Shown piece by piece: positions 5,463-20,075 of a stretch of DNA of 35,862 nt. The translations under genes were made by a program, and so were the position numbers. Source of the stretch: a virus (taxonomy: Duplodnaviria > Heunggongvirae > Uroviricota > Caudoviricetes); the IMG/VR virus record IMGVR_UViG_3300023213_000338; one strand, given 5' to 3'. Position 1 is the first letter of the stretch; the number at the start of each line of letters is the position of its first letter. The notes beneath the pieces were generated by a model. It was not told the origin of the DNA. It ran no database searches and worked only from the letters and a program-made list of their open reading frames with translations.

Positions 5463-6058
5463 TGGCAGACGAACTCGTATCAATACCCTCTATTTCTATA
5501 GAACCACAGACTAAAAATAAGCCGAAAATTGAGGCTAAAAAGAGAAGGCGTTATGGAAAATTAAGACTAACTTCTAGTGGGGCAATTAAACAAACAACTC
5601 GTTTGGATTTATTTTTAGAAGAGTTTTTGAAAAATGGAGGAAACGGAACAAAAGCTGCAATGACAGTATTTGGTTATACAAATAAAATGACAGCGGCAAC
5701 TGTCTCGGCTAAATATTTGAAAAAAGCTAGAAGTATTTCTCGTTTATATATGGAGCAAAAGGGTTATACATGGGGAAGGCTTCTTGAAATTATTGTCCAT
5801 AAGATTGAAGAGAGTAAGACTCCAGAATTTTTAGATCGCTTCTTAAGAATTGTTGGATATGGGGAAATGATAGAGGAGAATAAAAAGGCATCTCCTACTA
5901 GCGGAAATATTATCAACATAATTCAAACAGAGAAAGGAATTTTAAGTAAATATACGGACGAGGAGATCGAGGACGTAGAACCGTTGCCTCTAGATGTAAT
6001 TGCCGAAAATAACAAAGAGGAGGAAAACAAGAAACAGGGAAAGGCTGAGAGTGATTGA
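5462..6058 (+). CDS. terS: Terminase small subunit
   Basis: HTH-like FLEEFLKNGGNGTKAAMTVFGY...AATVSAKYL. Lies immediately upstream of and overlaps terL. Confidence 0.75.
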   Translation: MADELVSIPSISIEPQTKNKPKIEAKKRRRYGKLRLTSSGAIKQTTRLDLFLEEFLKNGGNGTKAAMTVFGYTNKMTAATVSAKYLKKARSISRLYMEQKGYTWGRLLEIIVHKIEESKTPEFLDRFLRIVGYGEMIEENKKASPTSGNIINIIQTEKGILSKYTDEEIEDVEPLPLDVIAENNKEEENKKQGKAESD

Positions 6059-8057
6059 TTATAAGGGTTTTATTGAAGACAACTTTTTAATACTTGATTA
6101 TCAAAGTCAGCAACCAGTTCCTTTTAAATTTAAACCAGTTCAAGAAAAATATTATAAAGTTCTTAAAAATGAGTATGGAGACTTAAATGGAACAAGAGAA
6201 ATTTTATTAAAAGCACGTCAAGAAGGATTCTCTTCTTTTATTCTTGCTTTATTTACAGTTGATTTTATTTTTATTCCTTACTCCGTTTCGATTTGTATAT
6301 CTCATAGAAAAGACGCTACGGAATTGCTTTTTAAAAAAGTTAAGTTTTATTTAGAGTCTTATTGTCAGAAGAATGGTATGGATATTAAAGATTATCTTAT
6401 TACAGATAATAAAGGGATTATAGAAAGTCGGCATAAGCATTCTATCTTTTATATTGCAACTGCTGGAGCTAAGGTTGGGGGTAGAGGAGCGAGCGTGCGT
6501 AACATTCATTTTTCGGAATGTTTCGCAGGAGATCAATTAGTTATATTGCAAGATGGATTTATTAAAAAAATAAAAGATTTAAAGGAAGGAGATCCTATTG
6601 TTTTGGGTAATGGAAAGGTGGGTAATATTATCCAATTGCAAAAGAAAAAATCTTCTTCACCGATGAAACGAATCTCCTGTTATGGAAATACTCATTTCCC
6701 AATTGAATGCACAAACGATCATTTAATTTTATGTAGTGACAAAGAAGAAAAAATGCAAATTGGATCTGATGGAAAAATTAAACACAGAAGTTCTACTTTT
6801 GCAAAACCAATTTGGAAAAAGGCAGGCGAGGTTGAAGTAGGAGATTACGTTGCTTTTCCTTCAAATTTAATTAGATCTGATGTTAGGAAAAAATACATTG
6901 ATGGAATTTTAATAACGCCAGAATTATCCGAATTAATTGGATGGTATTTAGCAGAAGGATCATTAAATAAGGGAAGAATTGATTTGTCAATTCATCAAAA
7001 TGAGTTTCCTTTACTTAAAAATTTAATAGAGAAATTAAAATTTTCTTATTCTATTTATCATAGAAAAAGTGATGGGAAAGGATTAGTAATAGCTATATTT
7101 AGTTCAAAATTAGCCTTAATAATTGAAAAATATTTTGGTAGAGTTGACTTTAAAAAAATTCCTGAATTTTTTAGAGATACAAATAAAGAGAATGTTCAGT
7201 CTTTAATAAGAGGGTTAGTTAAAGGGGATGGTGCTTTTTATCCTGATAAAATTGTATATGTTAGCAGTCGGCCTCAATTAGCAATTCAATTGAAACGATT
7301 ACTAATTGATTTAAAAATTGCATATCCTACTATTGAAAAGCATAAACCTCTTCGGGGTAGTATTAATTATTTTGGTAATCCAATTATAGGTAAAAAAGAT
7401 ATATGGCATCTTATTATTTCTGGAGATTCAGTTAGGAAATTTCATAATGAGATTTTAGGAGAAAATATTAAGAAGAAAGCTCACAAATTAAATAGACGAT
7501 GGAAAGCTTCGTCAAATTATTATTGGATGCGAGTAGCTTCTGTAAAAGATATTCCAAAAGAAGAATTTGTTTATGATGTTGTTCTTGATCAAGAGCCTCA
7601 CTCATTTTGTGTTATTTCAGGAATAGTACATAATTGTGCTTTTTATATGGATACCGAAATTATTACAGCTTCAGAAATTGTAGAAGCTACTGCTCAGCAA
7701 GTTCCTCCAAGTAAAGGTATGATTTTCATCGAGTCCACCGCGAATGGGGTCGACAATTTTTATCAAAAGGAATGGGAGCGTGCTCAGAATTTTGATAAAA
7801 ATGGGAAACGATTAAGTACATATCATCCTCGTTTTTTTGGCTGGCAAGAATTCTATTCCAAAGAATGGGTAGAGAAGAAAAGAGGCGATTTTTCGAGCGA
7901 GGCGAAGTGGTTACAAGAATATCCTGGCGATCCAAATCAAGCCTTTATAGCTTCTGGTACTCCTTTCTTTGACAACCTTATTTTGGAAGAGATGAAAAAA
8001 AATGCACCTGAGATTTTACAATCTGGGAGATTAGCTCCCGATGGAAATTGGATTTAA
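6051..8057 (+). CDS. terL: Terminase large subunit, ATPase part (intein-containing)
   Basis: Probable GTG start at 6051 overlapping the terS stop. Q-motif FKPVQ, Walker A LKARQEGFSS, GRG motif, Walker B IHFSE-CAF after intein removal, coupling motif IESTANG, QEYP...AFIASG. Ends before the nuclease domain. Confidence 0.9.
   Translation: MIDYKGFIEDNFLILDYQSQQPVPFKFKPVQEKYYKVLKNEYGDLNGTREILLKARQEGFSSFILALFTVDFIFIPYSVSICISHRKDATELLFKKVKFYLESYCQKNGMDIKDYLITDNKGIIESRHKHSIFYIATAGAKVGGRGASVRNIHFSECFAGDQLVILQDGFIKKIKDLKEGDPIVLGNGKVGNIIQLQKKKSSSPMKRISCYGNTHFPIECTNDHLILCSDKEEKMQIGSDGKIKHRSSTFAKPIWKKAGEVEVGDYVAFPSNLIRSDVRKKYIDGILITPELSELIGWYLAEGSLNKGRIDLSIHQNEFPLLKNLIEKLKFSYSIYHRKSDGKGLVIAIFSSKLALIIEKYFGRVDFKKIPEFFRDTNKENVQSLIRGLVKGDGAFYPDKIVYVSSRPQLAIQLKRLLIDLKIAYPTIEKHKPLRGSINYFGNPIIGKKDIWHLIISGDSVRKFHNEILGENIKKKAHKLNRRWKASSNYYWMRVASVKDIPKEEFVYDVVLDQEPHSFCVISGIVHNCAFYMDTEIITASEIVEATAQQVPPSKGMIFIESTANGVDNFYQKEWERAQNFDKNGKRLSTYHPRFFGWQEFYSKEWVEKKRGDFSSEAKWLQEYPGDPNQAFIASGTPFFDNLILEEMKKNAPEILQSGRLAPDGNWI
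6519..7634 (+). mobile_element. Intein (372 aa) with LAGLIDADG homing endonuclease
   Basis: Begins CFAGDQLV (block A) and contains ECTNDH (block B). LAGLIDADG-like LIGWYLAEGS and LIRGLVKGDG. Ends VYDVVL...HSF...IVHN, followed by +1 Cys (TGT 7635-7637). Confidence 0.95.
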
Positions 8058-8058
8058 T

Positions 8059-8870
8059 ATGAAAAAAATATGTTCTTATTTTGATTGTAAAAAAGAATTT
8101 AAGTTGCAAAAAATAACTCAATTATATTATATTGTAGTAAATCATGTGTTATGAGAGATAAATATAAAAATAAAAGTTATCTAAATTGTTTTATTTGTAA
8201 TAAAAAATTTCACCTAAAGTTTTCTGCAATTAAAAAGGGTAGAGGTAAATGTTGTTCTAAAAAATGTTTAAACTTATATCAATTCAAAAAGCAACTAAAG
8301 AATTGTTTAATTTGTGAAAAAGATTTTTTTATCATTCCCTCTAGAATAAAAAATGGATGGAGTGGTGCATGTTCTCGTAGGTGTTATAATATTTTTAGGC
8401 AAAATAGTAGGCAAAAAATACAATGTATAAATTGTAAAAAATTATTTTTTACTTCTATTGCTTTAATAAAAAGAGGCCAAGGAAAATTTTGCTCTGAAAT
8501 ATGTCAATATCAAGCTTATAGATCTGATGAATGGCGCAATAAAACTAACATGACTCGCTCAGGAGAGTTGTGTCCTGCATGGAAGGGTGGAGTAACTCCT
8601 TTGCATAAATTAATAAGACATTCAAAAGAATATTTAAGATGGCGTAAATATGTTTTTGAAAGAGATAATTATACATGTCAAATATGTAATAAAAGAGGTG
8701 GAAAATTACACGCTGATCATATTTTGCCATTTGCTTTTTTCCCATTATTAAGATTTAAGATTTCTAATGGACGGACTTTATGTATAAATTGTCATAGGTT
8801 AACTTCAACCTATGGAGGTAAAGTTTATGCTTATATGAAGGAGGTGATTGGTAATGGCATACCAAAATGA
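8059..8870 (+). mobile_element. Free-standing HNH homing endonuclease with tandem Zn-finger repeats; frameshift near the 5' end
   Basis: Repeated CxxCxKxF...CSxxC modules, then WKGG...WRKYVFERDNYTCQIC...HADHI...NGRTLCINCH. ATG 8059 is out of frame with the 8151 ORF because of a tandem ATTAT duplication (8121-8130). Confidence 0.85.
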
Positions 8871-9531
8871 ACCGCTCCCCCCACTTCGACTCTATCGAGA
8901 GTTGGATCATGGGGAGCAATGACAACTTGTTATATTCGGAGATCCTGCTGAATCAAGCGATTATTGTGCAGCCGTAGCATTTAGCAAAAAGTATTTTGAT
9001 TATCCTTTAGTTTTTAATCAAGTTATCGATTCAGCTCAATTTGGATATGAGCTTTTTAATATGGCAAAGTATATCCATAATAAAACGGAAATGTGGCCTA
9101 AGCTTGCAGTAGAAAGAAATACAGGACAAGCCACAATTTTTGTTTTAAAGAATCTAAATTATCCAGACCTTTTTCGCATGATAGATTTTACTTCTATGGA
9201 TTCTCATGAAGGAGGGGGAATTGGATGGGTTACTACTGGATGGATGCGTGGAGGAGAACTCCAAGGAACTAGAAAAAAAATGCTTGATGATCTTGCTCTT
9301 GCTATTAAACAAAAACAAGTTAAAATTTACGATCGGGATCAAATAAATCAATTGCAATCTTTTATACTTGCAAGGGGAGGAAGAGCTCAAGCTAAAGCAA
9401 ATAAGCATGACGATTTGGTTATAAGCACAGCTGGAGCATGGCAAATTCATCTTGTAACACCTTCTATGTTTCTTGATGATTATGATGAGTTTGCAGCTTA
9501 TGAACTGAGACAAAAGTGGAGGTTTAAATAA
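8854..9531 (+). CDS. terL: Terminase large subunit, RNase H-like nuclease part; separate cistron with an in-frame TGA at 8920-8922
   Basis: SD aaggaggtg then ATG 8854. Reads MAYQNEPLPPLRLYRELDHGEQ*QLVIFGDPAESSDYCAAVAF...LAVERNTGQATI...GW.T...HDDLVISTA. The acidic residues D, E and DD fit a terminase nuclease. The ORF track shows only the part from 9061. Confidence 0.75.
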
Positions 9532-9944: not shown

Positions 9945-9973
9945 TTGACAATTTTCTAGGACTCTGATATTAG
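9945..9973 (+). promoter_or_regulatory. sigma70-type promoter upstream of portal
   Basis: TTGACA (9945-9950), 17 nt, TG-a-TATTAG (imperfect extended -10). Confidence 0.5.
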
Positions 9974-10012
9974 TTAAGCGATAAAAGAAAAATAGGAGAA
10001 CAACTCCATTTT

Positions 10013-10071: not shown

Positions 10072-12240
10072 ATGCCAAGTACAATCGATCCTAGTGCAAA
10101 TGTTAGTGGAGCTCCGATGGAGCGTGATGAACTTGCAGTTTTTACAGAAGTTAGACGACACGCAGACATAGGCTTCAACGAAACTCAGAGACGTGCTATT
10201 GGTAAAAACAGGGTTGGTTCAATTTCTTTTAACGAAGCGGATGAATTATTCAGAGGATGGATCGATGAGAATTCGTGGCCCTATGACGCTTTGCTTTTTG
10301 ATCCCCGTGTCTTCACTTTTATATTTGAAAAGACTTCAAGATTAATTGCTTCAAAGCCACGTGGGCATTTAGTTCCTCGTCAAAGCTCAGATATTATCGC
10401 AGCCAAGATTAATAATGCTATTTTAGAAACCCAATGGGATACCGCAAACTATGGAGGAACAATGATTTCCAAGTGGGCAATGATGGATATGAATACCAGA
10501 AAATATGGAGCAGCTTTTGGAATGAGTAAGTGGAGGTATGAGCAAGGAAATAAAGGACAAATCCTATACGATGGGCCAGAGTTTAGAGTTCTTAATAACA
10601 GAGATTGTGCTCATGATATGACCGCAACAGCTATTGAGAATTGTAATTGGTTTCAGGTTCGCGAATATCCTACTTTCCAGCAATTGGAAGCGGTAAATGA
10701 TAAATCAAAGGGTAAACCTTTTTATAAAAATCTTGATAGGCTAAGAGAAGCCATTCTTAAAGGCAGTTTGGCGGGAGGAGATACAAGGGGATCAAATTGG
10801 TTATCCAGAAACAGGCAAATTTCAAGATTAGATCCTGATCCAACTGGAAAAGATTATGTTTATAAAACAGTTGAAATAGTTACAGAGTATAGAAGAGACC
10901 GTTGGATAACTTTTGCTCCACGACATGGAGTTGTGCTTAGAGATATTGATAATCCTTATAAGAACAACGAGCTTCCAATCGTTATGCTTAGATATTATGC
11001 TATTGATGATGACTTATATGGTTTAAGCGAAATTGAATCTATTAAATCCTTACAAAAAGCTATTAATGCTCTTCTTTGTCAATATGTAGATGAGATAAAT
11101 CAAAAGCTTTATACCCCAATTGCGGTTGGGCCAGGCGTTAGGCAACATACGTTAGAATGGGGGAAAGGAGCTCGTTGGATGATGAATAATCCTATGACAG
11201 ATTTCAGATTGGTAGAACCCAATTCTAATGCTGCTCAACTTTTTCAAGGTACTTATTCTACTCTAGTTTCTGCCATGATGAATGCTCTTGGAGAAAGTTC
11301 GTTGGGAGTTTCTAACCTTGGGCCGATGCAAAGAGATAAAACCGCAACTGAAGTTAGATCTCTTATGACTCAAAGTAATGCTCGTGATAACTTTAACCAG
11401 ATTTTTCTTTCCGAAGCATTAGAAAGACAAATGAAACTTTGGTATTCCATGAATCAAACCCTTCTTTTTACAGATCCAGAAAAAAAGTTTTATGTTCTTA
11501 GAGTTGTAGGACAAGAATTGATTCGCGATTTTCAAGAGGAAGAGCTTGACCAAATGACTGTTCCAGATGTTGCTTATCAGCTTCTCATGGAACAACCTTC
11601 AGATACGTCTGCTCCACAACCAGCTAATATGGAAATACTTCAACAAGAGATCGATAAAATGAAAATACCTAAATTCCCTATTAATAGAGGGACAAAAACT
11701 AAACCTAAGTTTGAACCCAAGATGAAACTTTATCCCAATGGAAAACTGGCAGAGATTCAAGTTGAACCAGCAGATTTAGAGGGTCAATTTGATTTTGTTA
11801 TTGATGTTAAAAGCATGATGGATAATGCAGATGATCTTCGTAAACAAGCTCGTCAATCAGCAATCAGTTTGTTGGTATCTAACCCAAATGTTATAGCTTT
11901 GTTACAGCAGGAAGGATATCAACCTAAGTTTAAAGAGCTTTTTGTGAATTGGCTTGAAGATATGGGCTTTACTGATGCAGACAAATATTTTGCTCAAGTT
12001 ACGCAAGAAAACCAATTACAAATGCCAGGAGGTCAGCCGACCCAAGGACAAACTTCTCCTCAACCAAATCAGCCTCCAGAAACTGGAGCTCCAGAAATAG
12101 CATCTCAGATAGCAGGAATGCAAAAGATTTTCCCATTAGATAGAAATGCTAATGTTTACAGTCCGTTCAGTCAATTTGGACAATTTGCTCCTCCGACTGG
12201 AGGAGTCAATCCAAATGCTAATGGGATGGGAGCTCAATAA
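10072..12240 (+). CDS. Portal protein (P22/podovirus-like)
   Basis: 722 aa, after terL. Motifs YGLSEIE...LQKAINAL...DEIN, TATEV and Q/P-rich tail are typical of P22-like portals. Confidence 0.85.
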   Translation: MPSTIDPSANVSGAPMERDELAVFTEVRRHADIGFNETQRRAIGKNRVGSISFNEADELFRGWIDENSWPYDALLFDPRVFTFIFEKTSRLIASKPRGHLVPRQSSDIIAAKINNAILETQWDTANYGGTMISKWAMMDMNTRKYGAAFGMSKWRYEQGNKGQILYDGPEFRVLNNRDCAHDMTATAIENCNWFQVREYPTFQQLEAVNDKSKGKPFYKNLDRLREAILKGSLAGGDTRGSNWLSRNRQISRLDPDPTGKDYVYKTVEIVTEYRRDRWITFAPRHGVVLRDIDNPYKNNELPIVMLRYYAIDDDLYGLSEIESIKSLQKAINALLCQYVDEINQKLYTPIAVGPGVRQHTLEWGKGARWMMNNPMTDFRLVEPNSNAAQLFQGTYSTLVSAMMNALGESSLGVSNLGPMQRDKTATEVRSLMTQSNARDNFNQIFLSEALERQMKLWYSMNQTLLFTDPEKKFYVLRVVGQELIRDFQEEELDQMTVPDVAYQLLMEQPSDTSAPQPANMEILQQEIDKMKIPKFPINRGTKTKPKFEPKMKLYPNGKLAEIQVEPADLEGQFDFVIDVKSMMDNADDLRKQARQSAISLLVSNPNVIALLQQEGYQPKFKELFVNWLEDMGFTDADKYFAQVTQENQLQMPGGQPTQGQTSPQPNQPPETGAPEIASQIAGMQKIFPLDRNANVYSPFSQFGQFAPPTGGVNPNANGMGAQ

Positions 12241-12244
12241 ATAG

Positions 12245-12628
12245 ATGATTGAAGATCAACTACCAGATTTCGAAAGACCAGATAATGGCAAGTTGGAAAC
12301 TGGACAAGAAGCATATTCAAAAGGGAAGCAACTCAACGATATCGAAGAAAAAGAATATCGAGAGGGAGAAGCTCTTAGAACGATGATTGAAACCAGCGAA
12401 GGGTGGAGATTGGTAAAAGAGATGCTTGAAGATTTAGCTTATCATTCTTGGGTTGATCCAAGAGGAACTAAAGCTAAGGACGAATGGGTTTGGGCAGAAA
12501 TGAATGCATTTCATGCAGCTAATAACGCTAAGGAGTTGCTAGTTCGCATTCAAGAGAAAATCGATCGTGCAGATTATTTAGGAAAAGTTCGAGCAGGAGA
12601 AATTGTAGTTAAACAAATGAAAATATGA
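12245..12628 (+). CDS. Small helical protein following portal (head-assembly associated)
   Basis: ALRTMIETSEGWRLVKEMLE resembles the small conserved post-portal proteins of podovirus-like phages. Confidence 0.55.
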   Translation: MIEDQLPDFERPDNGKLETGQEAYSKGKQLNDIEEKEYREGEALRTMIETSEGWRLVKEMLEDLAYHSWVDPRGTKAKDEWVWAEMNAFHAANNAKELLVRIQEKIDRADYLGKVRAGEIVVKQMKI

Positions 12629-12756
12629 CAGTAGGTTTAATAACTTATCAAGACAATGCGAGGAGAGAAACATTTGCTAAAGTAAATACTACTCAGCGAT
12701 TATTTAAAAGACTTCCTAAAAAGAAGAATAAAAAGATGAAAGGAGGTGGAAAATAA
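12625..12756 (+). CDS. 43-aa ORF whose N-terminus copies the major capsid N-terminus, with Lys-rich tail; absent from ORF track
   Basis: ATGA overlap with upstream stop. MTVGLITYQDNARRETFAKVNTTQRLFKRLPKKKNKKMKGGGK versus capsid MAWGLITYQDAARRED: 12/16 identical. Confidence 0.75.
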   Translation: MTVGLITYQDNARRETFAKVNTTQRLFKRLPKKKNKKMKGGGK

Positions 12757-12758
12757 AC

Positions 12759-12956
12759 ATGGCATTCGGTTCAAGTTCAAACAACAGTGGAGTACCTAAT
12801 CCCTCAATGATTCTTGGTAAAGATAATGCAGCGTGGGTTAAAGTTTTCACGGTTGGACAAAGAGCAGCTGTTAAAACAGGGAATCAGGAAGTAAGTACAG
12901 ATATTCCTGGTCAAAGAGTAGGTGATAAGGATACCAGCCAACCAGCTGAAGGATAA
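12759..12956 (+). CDS. Small hypothetical protein in head module
   Basis: Strong SD aaaggaggtg. 65 aa. Confidence 0.7.
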   Translation: MAFGSSSNNSGVPNPSMILGKDNAAWVKVFTVGQRAAVKTGNQEVSTDIPGQRVGDKDTSQPAEG

Positions 12957-12971
12957 TACCATGTTTCGCTA

Positions 12972-13157
12972 ATGCCTTACGTTGGTAAACAAGTTGCTAA
13001 CTTTAAGAAAGAGTATGGAAAGAATTGGAAAAAACGATTCTTTGCATGGAAAGGAGCAAACCCTGATTCGTACCAAAAAGGAGTTGCTACCGCTCGGAAA
13101 AAGGGAGACACAATTATACGAAGCTTAGCGAAAAAAGGAAAACGTGGCAGAGAATAA
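12972..13157 (+). CDS. Small highly basic protein
   Basis: 61 aa, Lys/Arg-rich. Stop overlaps next gene. Confidence 0.6.
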   Translation: MPYVGKQVANFKKEYGKNWKKRFFAWKGANPDSYQKGVATARKKGDTIIRSLAKKGKRGRE

Positions 13158-13416
13158 ACCTTTACCACCGTTACCTCCAAGCGACGCATCTAGCTTGCAG
13201 AGGAATCATTACGATAATTATTATGGAATAGGTGCGAGAACATTTTGGTCGAAAAGCGAATTAAGTAGTAATGAGATAAAACCATTCGAGAAATGCGAAC
13301 ACTATCTTATTAATGTAGAGGATGGTGTTGAATGTAAAAAATGTCATCTTGGATGGACGGGATCATTACAAGCAAGAGATGGAAAACTTTATATCAATGG
13401 TAAGCCTATTGAATAA
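13144..13416 (+). CDS. Small Zn-ribbon protein
   Basis: CEHY...ECKKCHLGW motif. Confidence 0.6.
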   Translation: MAENKPLPPLPPSDASSLQRNHYDNYYGIGARTFWSKSELSSNEIKPFEKCEHYLINVEDGVECKKCHLGWTGSLQARDGKLYINGKPIE

Positions 13417-13526: not shown

Positions 13527-14429
13527 ATGGACAATAATCAACAAGCAGGAGTAGTAACTCCAGCTCAACAACCAGCAATAGCACCTGTGCCTACACCAAC
13601 GCCAGTACCGAGTGTTCCTCAACAAACGCCAGTACAGCAAGTGCCACAGCCTGTTGCTCAACAAACAGTTTCGGACGCAGGAGATAGGACGAGACAAGAA
13701 TTCGAGAAGCTTCTCGAAAGTAATCGAAAATTGCATCAAGCAAATACATTACTTCAAGAAGAAATCGCTCGTCGTGCTAATGTGCAACAACAATTTGCAC
13801 CTATGCAACAACAAGCTGTCGCTCCGCAAACTCCGAATATTCAGGACTTTGTAGAAATTGATCCTGAATCGGGAACAAAATATATTAATGAGCGGAAATT
13901 GCAGTCGGCAATTGCAGAAGCTAATACAAGAGCTACTCAAGCAGTTTCCCAAATGCAAAACTATATCCAAGCTAACGAGCAAAGAGAGATTGAAAAACAA
14001 AATAGAGAAGCGTTTGCAACTTATCCCGAATTGAATCCAAACGATGCGAGTTTCGATCGGAATTTTAGCAATACAACATCTGCGCTTATTTTGCATTCAT
14101 ATATGAATCCTCGTAATTATTCAGACGGCAGACCTCTTACATTTAAAGAGGCAGCCGATATGTTAAAGAAAGGACAAGGAATTTCAACACAACAAGTCGT
14201 TCAGACAACAACTCCAGTTGCTCAACCGTCAGGACAGCCAACAGCTCAAGATTTGAAAGCACAAGCAGCAGTCTCAGTACAGAGTATGCCTCAGCAAGTC
14301 ATTGCTACGCCAGAAGTGGTAGCAGAGATGCAAGCATTGAGGAGTAAGACTCGATTAGGAGACGATCAAGCACTTGCAGAGCGGTTGAAATATACCGAAC
14401 ATATAATTCCTAAAGAAGGGACTTCCTAG
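13527..14429 (+). CDS. Capsid scaffolding protein
   Basis: SD aaaggaggtg, ATG 13527. Q/P/V-rich termini and coiled-coil core. Lies directly upstream of the major capsid gene. Confidence 0.75.
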   Translation: MDNNQQAGVVTPAQQPAIAPVPTPTPVPSVPQQTPVQQVPQPVAQQTVSDAGDRTRQEFEKLLESNRKLHQANTLLQEEIARRANVQQQFAPMQQQAVAPQTPNIQDFVEIDPESGTKYINERKLQSAIAEANTRATQAVSQMQNYIQANEQREIEKQNREAFATYPELNPNDASFDRNFSNTTSALILHSYMNPRNYSDGRPLTFKEAADMLKKGQGISTQQVVQTTTPVAQPSGQPTAQDLKAQAAVSVQSMPQQVIATPEVVAEMQALRSKTRLGDDQALAERLKYTEHIIPKEGTS

Positions 14430-14497: not shown

Positions 14498-16288
14498 ATG
14501 GCTTGGGGTTTAATTACTTACCAAGACGCAGCAAGAAGAGAGGATTAATCAAGATATTTGCACATTGACAACTTAAGTAAACTTGGGTATAATATTATAT
14601 ATATGAATTTTGTATGTATAGTTTGTAATACCAATTTTTTTTCTTATAAAAAAGGCAGAAAAACTTGTTCAAAAATATGTTCTGCAATAAATCAACAAGA
14701 ACGAGTTGTAGGATATTGTGATTTTTGTGGTGAGCTTATTAAAAGAGTTGTAACAAGAATGAGGGGTAAACATATATTTTGTACACATGCGTGTCATCAT
14801 AAATGGGAGAAAAGTAAAGGAGCAAAATTTCCTCAATTGAGAGATAAAAAATGGTGTCAAGATCAATATAAAACTAAATCCCTTGCTAAAATAGCAAAAG
14901 AAATTGAGTGTGGAGAAACAACTGTTTTTAAATATTTTAAAATTCATAATATAAAGCTCGATAGAAATAAATGGATTTCTGGAGAAAAACATTATTTATG
15001 GAAAAACGGAATAACTCCATTTTATAAAGCGATTCGCAATCGAAGGAAATATTTTCATTGGAGAAAAGAGATTTTAAAAATCAATCCTCGAAAATGCGTA
15101 TTATGTGGATCAACAAAAAATTTAGAGGTTGATCACATTAAAAAATTAAAATTTATTATTTCCGACAATAATATTAAAACCATAGATGATGCAATGCAGT
15201 GTAAAGAATTATGGGAAGCGAAGAATGGTAGAATTCTTTGTAGAACATGCAATCTTCTGCGAGAAAAAATACATCCAACTAATGGTCCTCTATAAAGCAG
15301 GCTAAACGGCGAACGGAAGAACTCCTAACGTCGTACCAAATAAAAAAGGTCTAGAGACTATACACCTGCTACTAAATAAAGTAATGAAATAGTCCGACAC
15401 TCTTAGGAATAAGAGATTAACAATTTGCTTATGGATGTTCTTGCAGATGTGTCGCCTGATGAAACACCATTGCTCACCCTATTTGCTGTTTCAACAGCAA
15501 GAGGAACGCTTCATGAGTGGTTGAAATACAATATCGCACGACCGACTACCGTTCAAGCGGATGTCGAAGGAGCGGATATTACCTTCACAGATTTGACACA
15601 ACCATCGAGAACAAACAACATTACTCAAATTATTAACCAACCAGTTCAAGTTTCGAGAACTGAGAGAAAAGTTAATGTTGCTGCTATGGGAGATCCATAT
15701 GCGTTCCAAAAAGCGGATGCTTTAAGACAGCTCAAAATGAAAATGGAGTATGCTATCTTAAACGCAGCCAAAGCTTCTGGAGCTTCTGGATCAGGTAGGC
15801 AGATGAACGGTATTGATGCTTTCATTGCTACTTTAAATACAGCTCGTTCTTCAGGACAATCGTTCCTAGAACAAGAGCTTAATGATATGGCAGCTGATTC
15901 ATACAATACAGTACGTGCAGACAAAGTATTCGATATGTTACTTTGTACCGTTAAAATCAAACAAGCGATTGCTGGATTTGCGGGTAATTCAACACGTTAT
16001 ATTGATGCAGCAGATCGAAGACTTACAAAAGATATTCTTGTCTATGACTCAGCCGTTGGCTCACACAGAATTATGCACCACAGAGATGTGCGTAATAATG
16101 CAGGATCAACAACAGTCTATGGTTTGAGAGAAGACATGCACAGAGTTGCATATCTTGACAAACCAATGTTTGACGAACTTGCGAAAGTCGGAGACGCTGA
16201 TAGAGGCCGATGGGTAACTGAGTTTACTCTTGAGGTTCTTGAAGAAAGATCAGATCAAAAGAGAACAGGATACAACCAAAGCGGATAG
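14498..16288 (+). CDS. Major capsid protein (SU10/DUF5309-like HK97 fold), spliced: exon1 14498-14545 + exon2 15428-16288
   Basis: Joined exons read MAWGLITYQDAARRED|LMDVLADVSPDETPLL...HEW...NITQI...KMEYAIL...EFTLEV in frame, 302 aa. Strong SD before 14498. Confidence 0.85.
14565..14593 (+). promoter_or_regulatory. Consensus sigma70 promoter inside the intron, driving the HNH
   Basis: TTGACA (14565-14570), 17 nt, TATAAT (14588-14593). ATG 14603 with no SD. Confidence 0.85.
14603..15295 (+). CDS. Intron-encoded HNH homing endonuclease with Zn-finger repeats
   Basis: CIVC..F...CSKIC and CDFC...CTHAC repeats, an HTH-like segment, and WKNG...KCVLC...LEVDHI...NGRILCRTC. Likely start is ATG 14603 rather than 14558. 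Confidence 0.9.
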   Translation: MNFVCIVCNTNFFSYKKGRKTCSKICSAINQQERVVGYCDFCGELIKRVVTRMRGKHIFCTHACHHKWEKSKGAKFPQLRDKKWCQDQYKTKSLAKIAKEIECGETTVFKYFKIHNIKLDRNKWISGEKHYLWKNGITPFYKAIRNRRKYFHWRKEILKINPRKCVLCGSTKNLEVDHIKKLKFIISDNNIKTIDDAMQCKELWEAKNGRILCRTCNLLREKIHPTNGPL

Positions 16289-17570: not shown

Positions 17571-20075
17571 ATGGCAGAAATTGAAATCACGAAAACTACT
17601 CATCCTTATAAAATTTTTTTCAACATGATTGTTAAGGATGACGAACCTCTGGAAATGGTTGAGAGATCAATAGACTCCATTAAAAAATACGTTGATGATA
17701 TTTATATAACAGTTACTTATGATAAGGATAAACCTTACAATTCTTCTTTAGTAAAGTATTTAAAAGATCAAAAATATCATGTTTCCTTTTTTAAGTGGGT
17801 TGATGATTTTTCTGTTGCCAGAAATTATGCAATGGAGCAAGTTCCTAAAGATCCAAGTCATTTTATTTATTGGCATGATGCTGATGATGTTTTAATGAAT
17901 CCAGATAAATTACATCTTATAGCAACCGATATGTATAATCAGAAACAAGCATCAGCCTTTTTTACTTATTTATATCTTGTTGAATTAGATGAAGAAAACA
18001 ATATCCGTGAAGTATTGGTAGAACATAAAAGAGAAAGGTTAATTCGCCATGACGATACATTTAAATGGATAGGGATGTTACATGAAGTTTTAATTGAGCA
18101 ACGTCAGGAAAATGTTACAAAATACTTCCGTCCAGAGTGTACGGTTCTTCATCTTTCTACGGAAACAAGGACAGACATTAATATTTTAAGAAATGTTCGT
18201 ATTCTAGAAGTTGCAATTAAGAAACAGGAACGAAAAGATCCTCGTACGATTATATATCTTGCAAAAGCATATTTTGATTTAGCTAAAGATGTGAGAAAGA
18301 AAGATAAGCACAAAATATATAGAGAACTTGCGATGATATTATTTAAGGAATATTTAGAAGGAGACGCAAATCCTGGAGATCCAAGTTATAGAGAAGGGTC
18401 AGGATGGAGAGAAGAACGTTCAACGGCATGGGAATATGTTTCAGAACTTCTAAGATGGAGTGGTAATATTAATGAAGCAATTGAAGCCATTGACCATGCT
18501 TTAAACGAAGCTCCCCAGTTTCCTATGTATTATATAGACAAAGCTGCTTTATATGTTCTAAAAAAAGATATTGCCAAAGCCAAAATTTGGCTAATGCTTG
18601 CAACGAACATCCCAGAGCCAGAGACAACAATTATTTCTACTCCTCGTGATCTTAAGTCTAAAGCCCTTGAAGTTGATTACCATATTTCTCTTATAGAGAT
18701 GAATCTTGCTAAGACCAAACAGGATTTACAATTGCTTTTAAAAATGTTCCCCAAGCAACCAGATTATGAACATAGGTTAAAAGTAATTGAAAATATGGAG
18801 AAATTGAATAAAACCTCACAATCGATTATTTATCTTGGTAAATATTTAGAAGATCAAAAAGAAGATTTAAAGCTTCCCTATCTTGTGAAAGCTATCCCTA
18901 AAGAATTGCAGGTAGAAAAATTTGCCTCTGAGATGAGACATAGATTTTTACCTGCTAAGATTTGGGAGAAGAATGAAGTTGCAATTCTTTGTGGCCCAGG
19001 ATGGGAAACTTGGACACCAGATAGTATGAAAACAGGACTTGGTGGGTCAGAAGAGGCAGTTGTTCATATGGGAGAACAACTGACAAAGTTTGGGTATAAA
19101 GTTACTGTTTACGCAAACCCCATGGAAAAAGAAGGACTATATAATGGAGTTGAATATAAGCAATGGTATGATATGAATCCTAAAGATGTTTTTAATATTC
19201 TTATTTTATGGAGATCAATAGGTTTTGTAGATGTTTCCCCTAAAGCAAAATTTATTATGCTTTGGATGCATGATATTCCTAATAATCCAGATTTTACAGA
19301 AGAAAGAGTAGGAAGACTTAATAAAATCGCTGTTTTATCAGAATACCATAAGAGTTTACTTCGCATGCAATTGGATAATGGGACATTTATTCCAATTCCA
19401 GAAAATAAGATTTTTTTAACAGCAAATGGAATTGATTTAATTCCTCCTATTAATAAATGGAAAGGAGATACTAAAAAGATGATTTATTGCTCCAGTCCTG
19501 ATAGAGGTCTTGTTTATCTTTTACGCAATTGGCCAATTATAAAAGAGAAAGTTCCTGATGCTACATTAGATATCTATTATGGGTTTGATATATTTGATAG
19601 AATCTTTGCCAATAATCCAGGTAGACAGGAGTGGAAGCATAAGGTTTTGGCTATGACAAAACAATCTGGAATTACATATCATGGAAGAGTAGGACATAAG
19701 GAGCTTCAGGATGCATTCGGCAAATCTGGGGCTTGGGCTTATCCGACAGATTTTGGAGAAATTTCTTGCATAAATGCGATGAAGGCTCAGGCACTTGGAG
19801 CAATTCCTGTGGTTACAAATTTCGCTGCTTTACAAGAAACAGTAAGAAATGGTATGAAGGTAGATGTGGATATTACAACTGAAGAAGGACAAAAAGAATA
19901 TGTTACAGCATTAGTTAAAATGCTTAAGCACCCAAAACATCAACAAGAAATTCGAGCATCTATGATGCCTTGGGCAAGAGAAAAATTTCAGTGGGAAGAT
20001 ATAGCTAAAGATTGGGATGATTTATTTAAAAATCATACGTCTCACTTACAGGAGGTGAAAAATAATGGATTATAA
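17571..20075 (+). CDS. Three-domain glycosyltransferase: GT2 (SunS/GmaR-like) - TPR - GT4
   Basis: N-terminal W.DDFS.ARN, WHDADD (DxD), RERL and W.G.LHE. Central TPR helices (YLAKAY, AIEAIDHAL..AP). C-terminal GLGGSEE...SSPDRGL...HGRV...EISCINAMKAQALGAIPV (GT-B). Confidence 0.85.
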   Translation: MAEIEITKTTHPYKIFFNMIVKDDEPLEMVERSIDSIKKYVDDIYITVTYDKDKPYNSSLVKYLKDQKYHVSFFKWVDDFSVARNYAMEQVPKDPSHFIYWHDADDVLMNPDKLHLIATDMYNQKQASAFFTYLYLVELDEENNIREVLVEHKRERLIRHDDTFKWIGMLHEVLIEQRQENVTKYFRPECTVLHLSTETRTDINILRNVRILEVAIKKQERKDPRTIIYLAKAYFDLAKDVRKKDKHKIYRELAMILFKEYLEGDANPGDPSYREGSGWREERSTAWEYVSELLRWSGNINEAIEAIDHALNEAPQFPMYYIDKAALYVLKKDIAKAKIWLMLATNIPEPETTIISTPRDLKSKALEVDYHISLIEMNLAKTKQDLQLLLKMFPKQPDYEHRLKVIENMEKLNKTSQSIIYLGKYLEDQKEDLKLPYLVKAIPKELQVEKFASEMRHRFLPAKIWEKNEVAILCGPGWETWTPDSMKTGLGGSEEAVVHMGEQLTKFGYKVTVYANPMEKEGLYNGVEYKQWYDMNPKDVFNILILWRSIGFVDVSPKAKFIMLWMHDIPNNPDFTEERVGRLNKIAVLSEYHKSLLRMQLDNGTFIPIPENKIFLTANGIDLIPPINKWKGDTKKMIYCSSPDRGLVYLLRNWPIIKEKVPDATLDIYYGFDIFDRIFANNPGRQEWKHKVLAMTKQSGITYHGRVGHKELQDAFGKSGAWAYPTDFGEISCINAMKAQALGAIPVVTNFAALQETVRNGMKVDVDITTEEGQKEYVTALVKMLKHPKHQQEIRASMMPWAREKFQWEDIAKDWDDLFKNHTSHLQEVKNNGL

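Follow-up and report, generated by a model that had tools for sequence, protein, structure and literature searches.

The entry of small internal proteins into the heads of tailed phages is understood in few systems, of which the targeting sequence of phage T4 is one. In T4, a 10-residue tag loads divergent, dispensable basic proteins into the prohead core (PMC9026906). The J protein of microviruses is a basic peptide of 26-38 aa anchored in a groove of the capsid (PMC12328618). In the P22 procapsid, the N-terminal arm of the coat protein binds the C-terminal helix-turn-helix of the scaffold through acidic residues, and after maturation the arm reaches into the adjacent coat subunit (PMC9965877). 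The N-arm of Pa223, the closest solved relative of the phage described here, comprises capsid residues 1-33 (10.1101/2025.06.11.659172).

The window, a stretch of 35,862 nt, is part of a 99.8-kb IMG/VR virus record, the genome of a tailed dsDNA phage with an HK97 capsid. Between the portal and scaffold genes lies a gene for a 43-aa peptide of net charge +11 (12625-12756, + strand) that consists of two parts: a tag (12634-12675, +) that copies residues 4-17 of the capsid N-arm, with the family consensus G-L-T-T-Y-Q-D-x-x-R-R-E-[D/T]-[I/L/F], and a variable Lys/Arg-rich body (12676-12753, +), in which these two residues make up 42% here and 33-82% across the family. The family is unnamed; it is real and has a clear tag-plus-cargo design. 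It comprises at least 41 distinct members (33 tabulated sequences and 8 more from later profile searches) of 32-103 aa. All are strongly basic and come from uncultured phages whose capsids are of the SU10 type. The net charge of the 33 tabulated members ranges from +9 to +27.

This family shares the design of the T4 internal proteins, namely small basic accessory proteins with a conserved N-terminal tag and divergent bodies. Like IPI, IPII and IPIII, its members are small, basic, dispensable and variable among relatives, with a short conserved N-terminal peptide. In contrast, the T4 tag (CTS) is a propeptide removed by the gp21 protease, whereas the tag here copies the capsid N-arm; an anti-restriction protein is among the T4 cargo, whereas every body found here is basic. 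A protease search of the head module gave no S78 match, with a positive control, and no match to the S77, S80 or Mu-type families, whose controls were silent; no protease-sized gene lies between the portal and capsid genes. A ClpP-like protease gene (79047-79694, - strand; PF00574, E = 1.3e-31) is located outside the window, ∼55 kb from the head module and on the opposite strand. Protein J is likewise strongly basic, with one conserved end that docks in the capsid groove and a remainder that contacts DNA and varies in length; the peptide may dock in a similar way. J differs in that it belongs to an ssDNA jelly-roll virus, has a C-terminal anchor that is not coat-derived and is present in one copy per coat subunit, as opposed to the product of an accessory gene. 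Neither homology to J nor a Microviridae genome was found: the phage is a tailed dsDNA phage, and the peptide has no Pfam or PHROG match. By analogy, the peptide would work like the T4 internal proteins or microvirus J while probably being a member of neither. Its tag is homologous to residues ∼4-17 of the SU10_MCP N-arm (PF17236; Pa223 gp65, 9NY2; SU10 gp9, 7Z45), but, unlike that arm, it is not attached to an HK97 core and leads into a basic body.

The retention of the arm residues, the basic body and the place in the head operon make the loading of a DNA-binding peptide into the head the likeliest role. The arm copy would be a docking tag for the coat lattice or the scaffold that brings such a peptide into the prohead, a reading to which a probability of about 0.5 is assigned.

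The head module in the window is ordered as terminase, portal, a 127-aa gene, small genes, a 90-aa Cys/His-rich gene, a probable scaffold and an intron-split capsid gene. The portal protein (10072-12240, +) matches PF23899 at E = 4.1e-6, under the curated cut-off. The conserved 127-aa post-portal gene (12245-12628, +), found in both the close and the distant clade, precedes the tagged peptide in every context read; Phage_Bbp19 (Atlas 0.87, in 21% of the members of the cluster) and phrog_528 (E = 0.027) are weak leads to its identity. Downstream of the peptide gene, the remaining variable cassette (12759-13157, +) holds a 65-aa non-basic ORF (12759-12956) and an untagged 61-aa basic ORF (12972-13157), and the conserved 90-aa Cys/His-rich gene (13144-13416, +) marks its end. 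The probable scaffold protein (13527-14429, +) is assigned by position and composition, carries a conserved C-terminal motif and may be the partner of the arm. Around the peptide gene, no promoter or terminator is conspicuous.

Exon 1 of the major capsid gene (14498-14545, +) encodes residues 1-16, the sequence copied by the tag, and exon 2 (15428-16288, +) encodes residues 17-302. They are separated by a probable group I intron (14546-15427, +) with an HNH-type ORF (14558/14603-15295), a U before the 5' site and a G at the 3' end, whose removal restores the frame. The 3' part of the intron folds at z = -3.0, and Rfam gives no match at the intron or at the peptide. Joined, the exons encode a 302-aa SU10_MCP protein of the HK97 fold (PF17236, E = 3.7e-59). 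An intron-less ortholog from the relative L116 has 96% identity to exon 2 and the expected N-terminus. Its model, based on a 101-sequence alignment, adopts the HK97 fold (pLDDT 78) with the Pa223 capsid 9NY2 as best match (TM 0.74); residues 1-26 fall under pLDDT 50, and the model gives no information on arm placement. The nearest capsid of a cultured phage is at most 32% identical.

A first-pass annotation of the window had reported the 43-aa ORF at 12625-12756, the capsid start at 14498, the overlap of the ORF start codon with the stop codon of 12245-12628 (ATGA) and 12 of 16 residues identical between the peptide and the capsid N-terminus, all of which are borne out. The runner-up ungapped match in the six frames of the window reaches 6 of 16, and a tag profile matches the 99.8-kb genome at exactly two places, the ORF itself (E = 1.3e-10) and the capsid start (E = 2.2e-9); the resemblance is therefore not due to chance. 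Comparison of the peptide N-terminus with the capsid N-arm by hhalign gives a probability of 96% (E = 3.3e-9). Set against capsid residues 1-20 of the SU10_MCP N-arm, the peptide is homologous with the same invariant positions, residues ∼4-17 being those copied, and the segment falls within the arm as delimited in Pa223. The copy had been described as almost exactly exon 1. The homology to the N-arm stands and extends one residue into exon 2: capsid Leu17, the first residue of exon 2, corresponds to Phe in the peptide, and this position is hydrophobic in 33 of 33 tabulated members. The basic tail after the copied part is present as described, except that 8 residues between the two had been skipped. 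The label 'unannotated' is accurate for Pfam and PHROG families and inaccurate for public collections, in which the peptide is already called as a hypothetical gene (P0003; ESM Atlas). The peptide has no usable match in the ESM Atlas, and a search for related loci from a 5-row peptide alignment confirmed no locus.

The residues retained in the tag of the 33 tabulated members are G4 (27), L5 (31), T7 (32), Y8 (32), D10 (33), R13 (33), R14 (32) and E15 (32). The positions kept in the peptides are those invariant in 39 close-clade capsids, while positions 11-12 vary in both sets. Since all arm-invariant residues are kept, the peptide would most simply bind the partner of the arm. The near-invariance of T7 and Y8 may also be read as a sign that the motif is an enzyme-docking site common to capsid and peptide, the peptide being a recognition leader or acceptor for the GT2-TPR-GT4 glycosyltransferase of the phage, encoded downstream of the capsid gene (17571-20075). 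A conserved leader ahead of a variable cationic body resembles the precursors of modified peptides, and the enzyme gene follows the capsid gene in 23 of 23 close-clade loci. However, the enzyme also occurs in 29 of 39 distant-clade loci, where tagged peptides are absent, and the capsid structure already explains the motif, which aligns with the N-arms of Pa223 and SU10. A role as a glycosyltransferase leader is thus considered improbable.

The similarity among family members ends after residue 17, with a mean pairwise identity of 0.72 in the tag and 0.22 in the following 14 residues. The bodies behind the tag range from simple Lys/Arg runs to distinct modules, several of them unrelated, and can be as long as 85 residues. 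For at least three bodies, a version with the tag and one without it are both present (P0001 vs L015; P0002 vs P0019/P0020; P0011 vs L099), and two of the untagged bodies sit in the same slot of relatives. As untagged basic peptides persist in this slot, the tag is not required for their role. A single fixed 'poly-Lys' tail is ruled out, as the bodies differ between members. A basic module of ∼45 aa with the core G-A-L-A-A-Y-I-G-R-K-K-Y-G-K (L015:6294-6452; P0001, P0062, P0100, P0124-P0149) is widespread alone, also occurs behind the tag and is embedded in HK97-type prohead proteases (PF04586), which ties it to heads, as well as in further long proteins, and no Pfam or PHROG model covers it. 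Among long proteins, the tag was found only on capsids; other long matches correspond to the basic body. Short tags score low in such a search, which makes this weak evidence. The arm copy thus behaves as a portable tag ahead of exchangeable basic cargo, and the presence of one tag on several unrelated basic bodies favours an address tag with cargo over a single-purpose mimic.

The slot itself (12629-13143) is hypervariable: between two conserved genes of the head module it holds a cassette of 0-4 tiny genes, most of them Lys/Arg-rich, and it is seen in further relatives (L003, L004, L015, L017, L018, L032, L099, L105, L121 and L153). One type of cassette gene matches phrog_1375, and the remaining types have no family. 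In every context read, the tagged gene is the first after the ∼110-aa post-portal gene and lies upstream of the 90-aa gene and the scaffold. The gene is conserved in relatives, which carry it in the same slot between portal and scaffold and always with a basic tail. Host labels conflict: the close relatives L179 and L180 were assigned to a Gammaproteobacteria MAG and a Woesearchaeota MAG, and the label of P0002 is Porphyromonadaceae. This suggests mis-binning and indicates no host.

The prevalence of the gene varies among close relatives. Of 44 non-redundant close-clade loci retrieved by way of their capsid, 8 carry the tagged gene; the slot is empty in 19 and contains other small genes, mostly basic, in 17. 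Tagged ORFs in capsid-found loci are those of L002, L005, L019, L020, L040, L114 and L140, with L185 recognised by DNA pattern. No second arm copy was detected in the distant clade, whose capsids are 41-54% identical, among 50 loci that include 2.5 kb or more of sequence before the capsid gene. The absence of the gene from 36 of 44 close relatives and from all scanned distant-clade loci implies that heads assemble without the peptide, and the tagged gene is accessory, not core. In L145, a deletion that shifts the frame has removed most of the tag relative to the sister locus L198, and in L041 the stretch of the peptide gene between its start codon and the next gene is deleted. Absence or frame disruption in relatives had been named beforehand among the findings that would refute the proposed role. 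This holds only in part: ∼80% of close relatives lack the gene and at least one (L145) has a broken copy, yet it is conserved in others. On a FastTree of 55 loci, which includes loci chosen for carrying the gene, presence needs 13 changes against a shuffled mean of 14.6, with no clustering. Such patchy gain and loss is typical of arms-race genes, and capsid-sensing host defences such as CapRel and Lit exist, so that the arm copy might be a decoy that titrates a host sensor or protease recognising the capsid N-terminus. A faithful copy of the trigger would nevertheless tend to activate the sensor, and neither the obligatory basic tail nor the fixed position in the late head module is expected of a decoy, which leaves this explanation with little probability.

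The age of the gene is apparent from its codons. Over the 12 core codons (12634-12669 vs 14507-14542) there are, as first reported, 5 synonymous differences and 1 amino-acid change. The proportions of differing synonymous and nonsynonymous sites (pS and pN) are 0.72 and 0.09 for this pair, 0.76 and 0.18 for peptides against their own capsids, and 0.89 and 0.23 between peptides. The window pair shares 6 identical codons where 5.3 are expected from codon usage. With pN well under pS, the tag is under purifying selection at the protein level, and the selection originally proposed for the peptide is confirmed: it is a real, selected gene. Thr6 is a signature of the family, being present in 26 of 33 peptides and in none of the 39 close-clade capsids. 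With its synonymous sites saturated and a signature of its own, the gene is an old paralog of the capsid-gene 5' end that protein-level selection maintains, and not a fresh duplication. A recent duplication is ruled out by the saturation, as is a DNA- or RNA-level function of the repeat, given that the codons are free to vary.

Some exchange between the two genes may have taken place since. In L005, the peptide gene (8447-8490) and the capsid gene (9962-10005) share an identical run of 17 nt, whereas none of 210 non-cognate pairs exceeds 12 nt. Cognate pairs also show a slight excess of identical codons at four invariant residues (30 vs 23.4, P = 0.02). These observations make occasional gene conversion between peptide and capsid genes possible, perhaps recently in L005. 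The run in L005, the frequent loss of the gene and the abundance of introns at the capsid 5' end could instead indicate a functionless duplication remnant or a by-product of intron homing in this region. This explanation is largely refuted by pN/pS, as the motif is kept while synonymous sites are saturated, and at least 41 intact members, many carriers with intron-less capsids and the Thr6 signature further oppose it; it is considered very improbable.

Co-variation of the tag with the capsid arm of the same phage, the check originally put forward, is suggestive only. Peptide and own capsid have the same residue 12 in 9 of 15 pairs, with 3.9 expected (P = 0.002), and the codons differ in 7 of the 9. 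This residue was chosen after inspection, and the raw signal weakens to a median P of 0.065 (range 0.01-0.25) with one member per clade.

In the proposed role as a docking tag with cargo, the peptide would be made together with the head genes, and the tag would bind the partner of the capsid's own N-arm. So bound, the peptide would be built into the prohead, where the basic body may bind packaged DNA, partly neutralising or tethering it. The peptide would be a dispensable booster rather than a core head protein. The analysis establishes the homology, the selection, the modular build, the position and the dispensability of the peptide; its expression, binding partner, encapsidation and DNA binding are what we infer.

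Two sites may receive the tag. An unoccupied arm site of the coat lattice is a tentative candidate. The C-terminal helix-turn-helix of the scaffold is a doubtful one. The C-terminal motif of the probable scaffold, L-x-x-x-T-R-x-G-D-x-x-A-L-A-x-R (14337-14400), is kept across 72 loci with its Ala and Arg invariant, and resembles the P22-type coat-binding helix-turn-helix by position and charge only. The acidic arm residues D19 and D23 are absent from the tag copy and D16 is kept in only 21 of 33 members, which weakens the scaffold version. The same motif, with its conserved Arg, may also serve a modulator of assembly: a free arm copy, retaining the invariant residues of the arm, may compete with the coat, either for the scaffold or for the arm sites of shells still growing, and tune nucleation, head size or timing, its basic tail holding it on DNA or membrane and the peptide not being retained in the virion. 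Translational coupling to a head gene would set the dose of such a peptide. Modulation leaves unexplained, however, why the tag is joined to several distinct folded basic modules, as long as 85 residues, which also exist alone, and it is regarded as rather unlikely.

Phage T4 harbors an unrelated counterpart. Its gp61.1 (NP_049649.1, hypothetical protein; L199:1467-1631) is identical to gp23 residues 57-93 at 17 of 37 positions (E = 6e-9). Like the peptide, gp61.1 is a free-standing copy of the N-terminal region of the major capsid protein, of 54 aa and with a Lys-containing tail; it differs in that it includes the protease site, has a mixed Lys/Glu tail and adjoins the primase gene. Comparison of the tag with gp61.1, which starts with a CTS-like leader, and with PHROG families revealed no similarity, and hhalign gives a probability of 0.5% for gp61.1 and the tag, i.e. 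no homology. As gp61.1 matches gp23 and not the tag, the design of a capsid-arm copy arose at least twice. The open-access literature yielded no description of a capsid N-arm mimic, of a truncated capsid copy or of a gp61.1 function. N-arm copying could conceivably be a general, independently re-invented addressing system of HK97-fold phages, in which a 14-residue tag seated in vacant arm sites, for example beside the portal, or on the scaffold would suffice to load any fused cargo, with this family and gp61.1 as two unrelated instances; we hold this wider proposal to be speculative. A capsid arm recycled as a tag, basic cargoes that are swapped and an unrelated counterpart in T4 suggest a simple, repeatable route into the head. 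For the many tiny Lys/Arg-rich genes in phage head modules, the family is a first clue to function. If the tag works, it could serve to load capsid nanoparticles, and gene 61.1 of T4 is a test case in a cultured phage.

A link of the peptide to exon 1 or the intron does not survive the comparison with relatives. Most carriers do not have that intron; eight have intron-less capsid genes (L005, L019, L114, L140, L189, L190, L193 and L197), and in other carriers introns lie elsewhere in the same capsid 5' region while the tag homology still ends at residue 17. Intron-less carriers and introns at three other positions rule out a tie, and the fit to the exon is coincidental. The first 27 codons of the capsid gene are a hot spot for introns, which sit near codons 5-8 or follow codon 16 or codon 27 (window 14546-15427, L002, L010, L016, L017, L020, L040, L191, L192 and L194), and the capsid gene of L020 appears to carry two. 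A LAGLIDADG-domain intein lies in the terminase (6000-9531 in the window), which an HNH gene splits and which relatives likewise encode as two ORFs.
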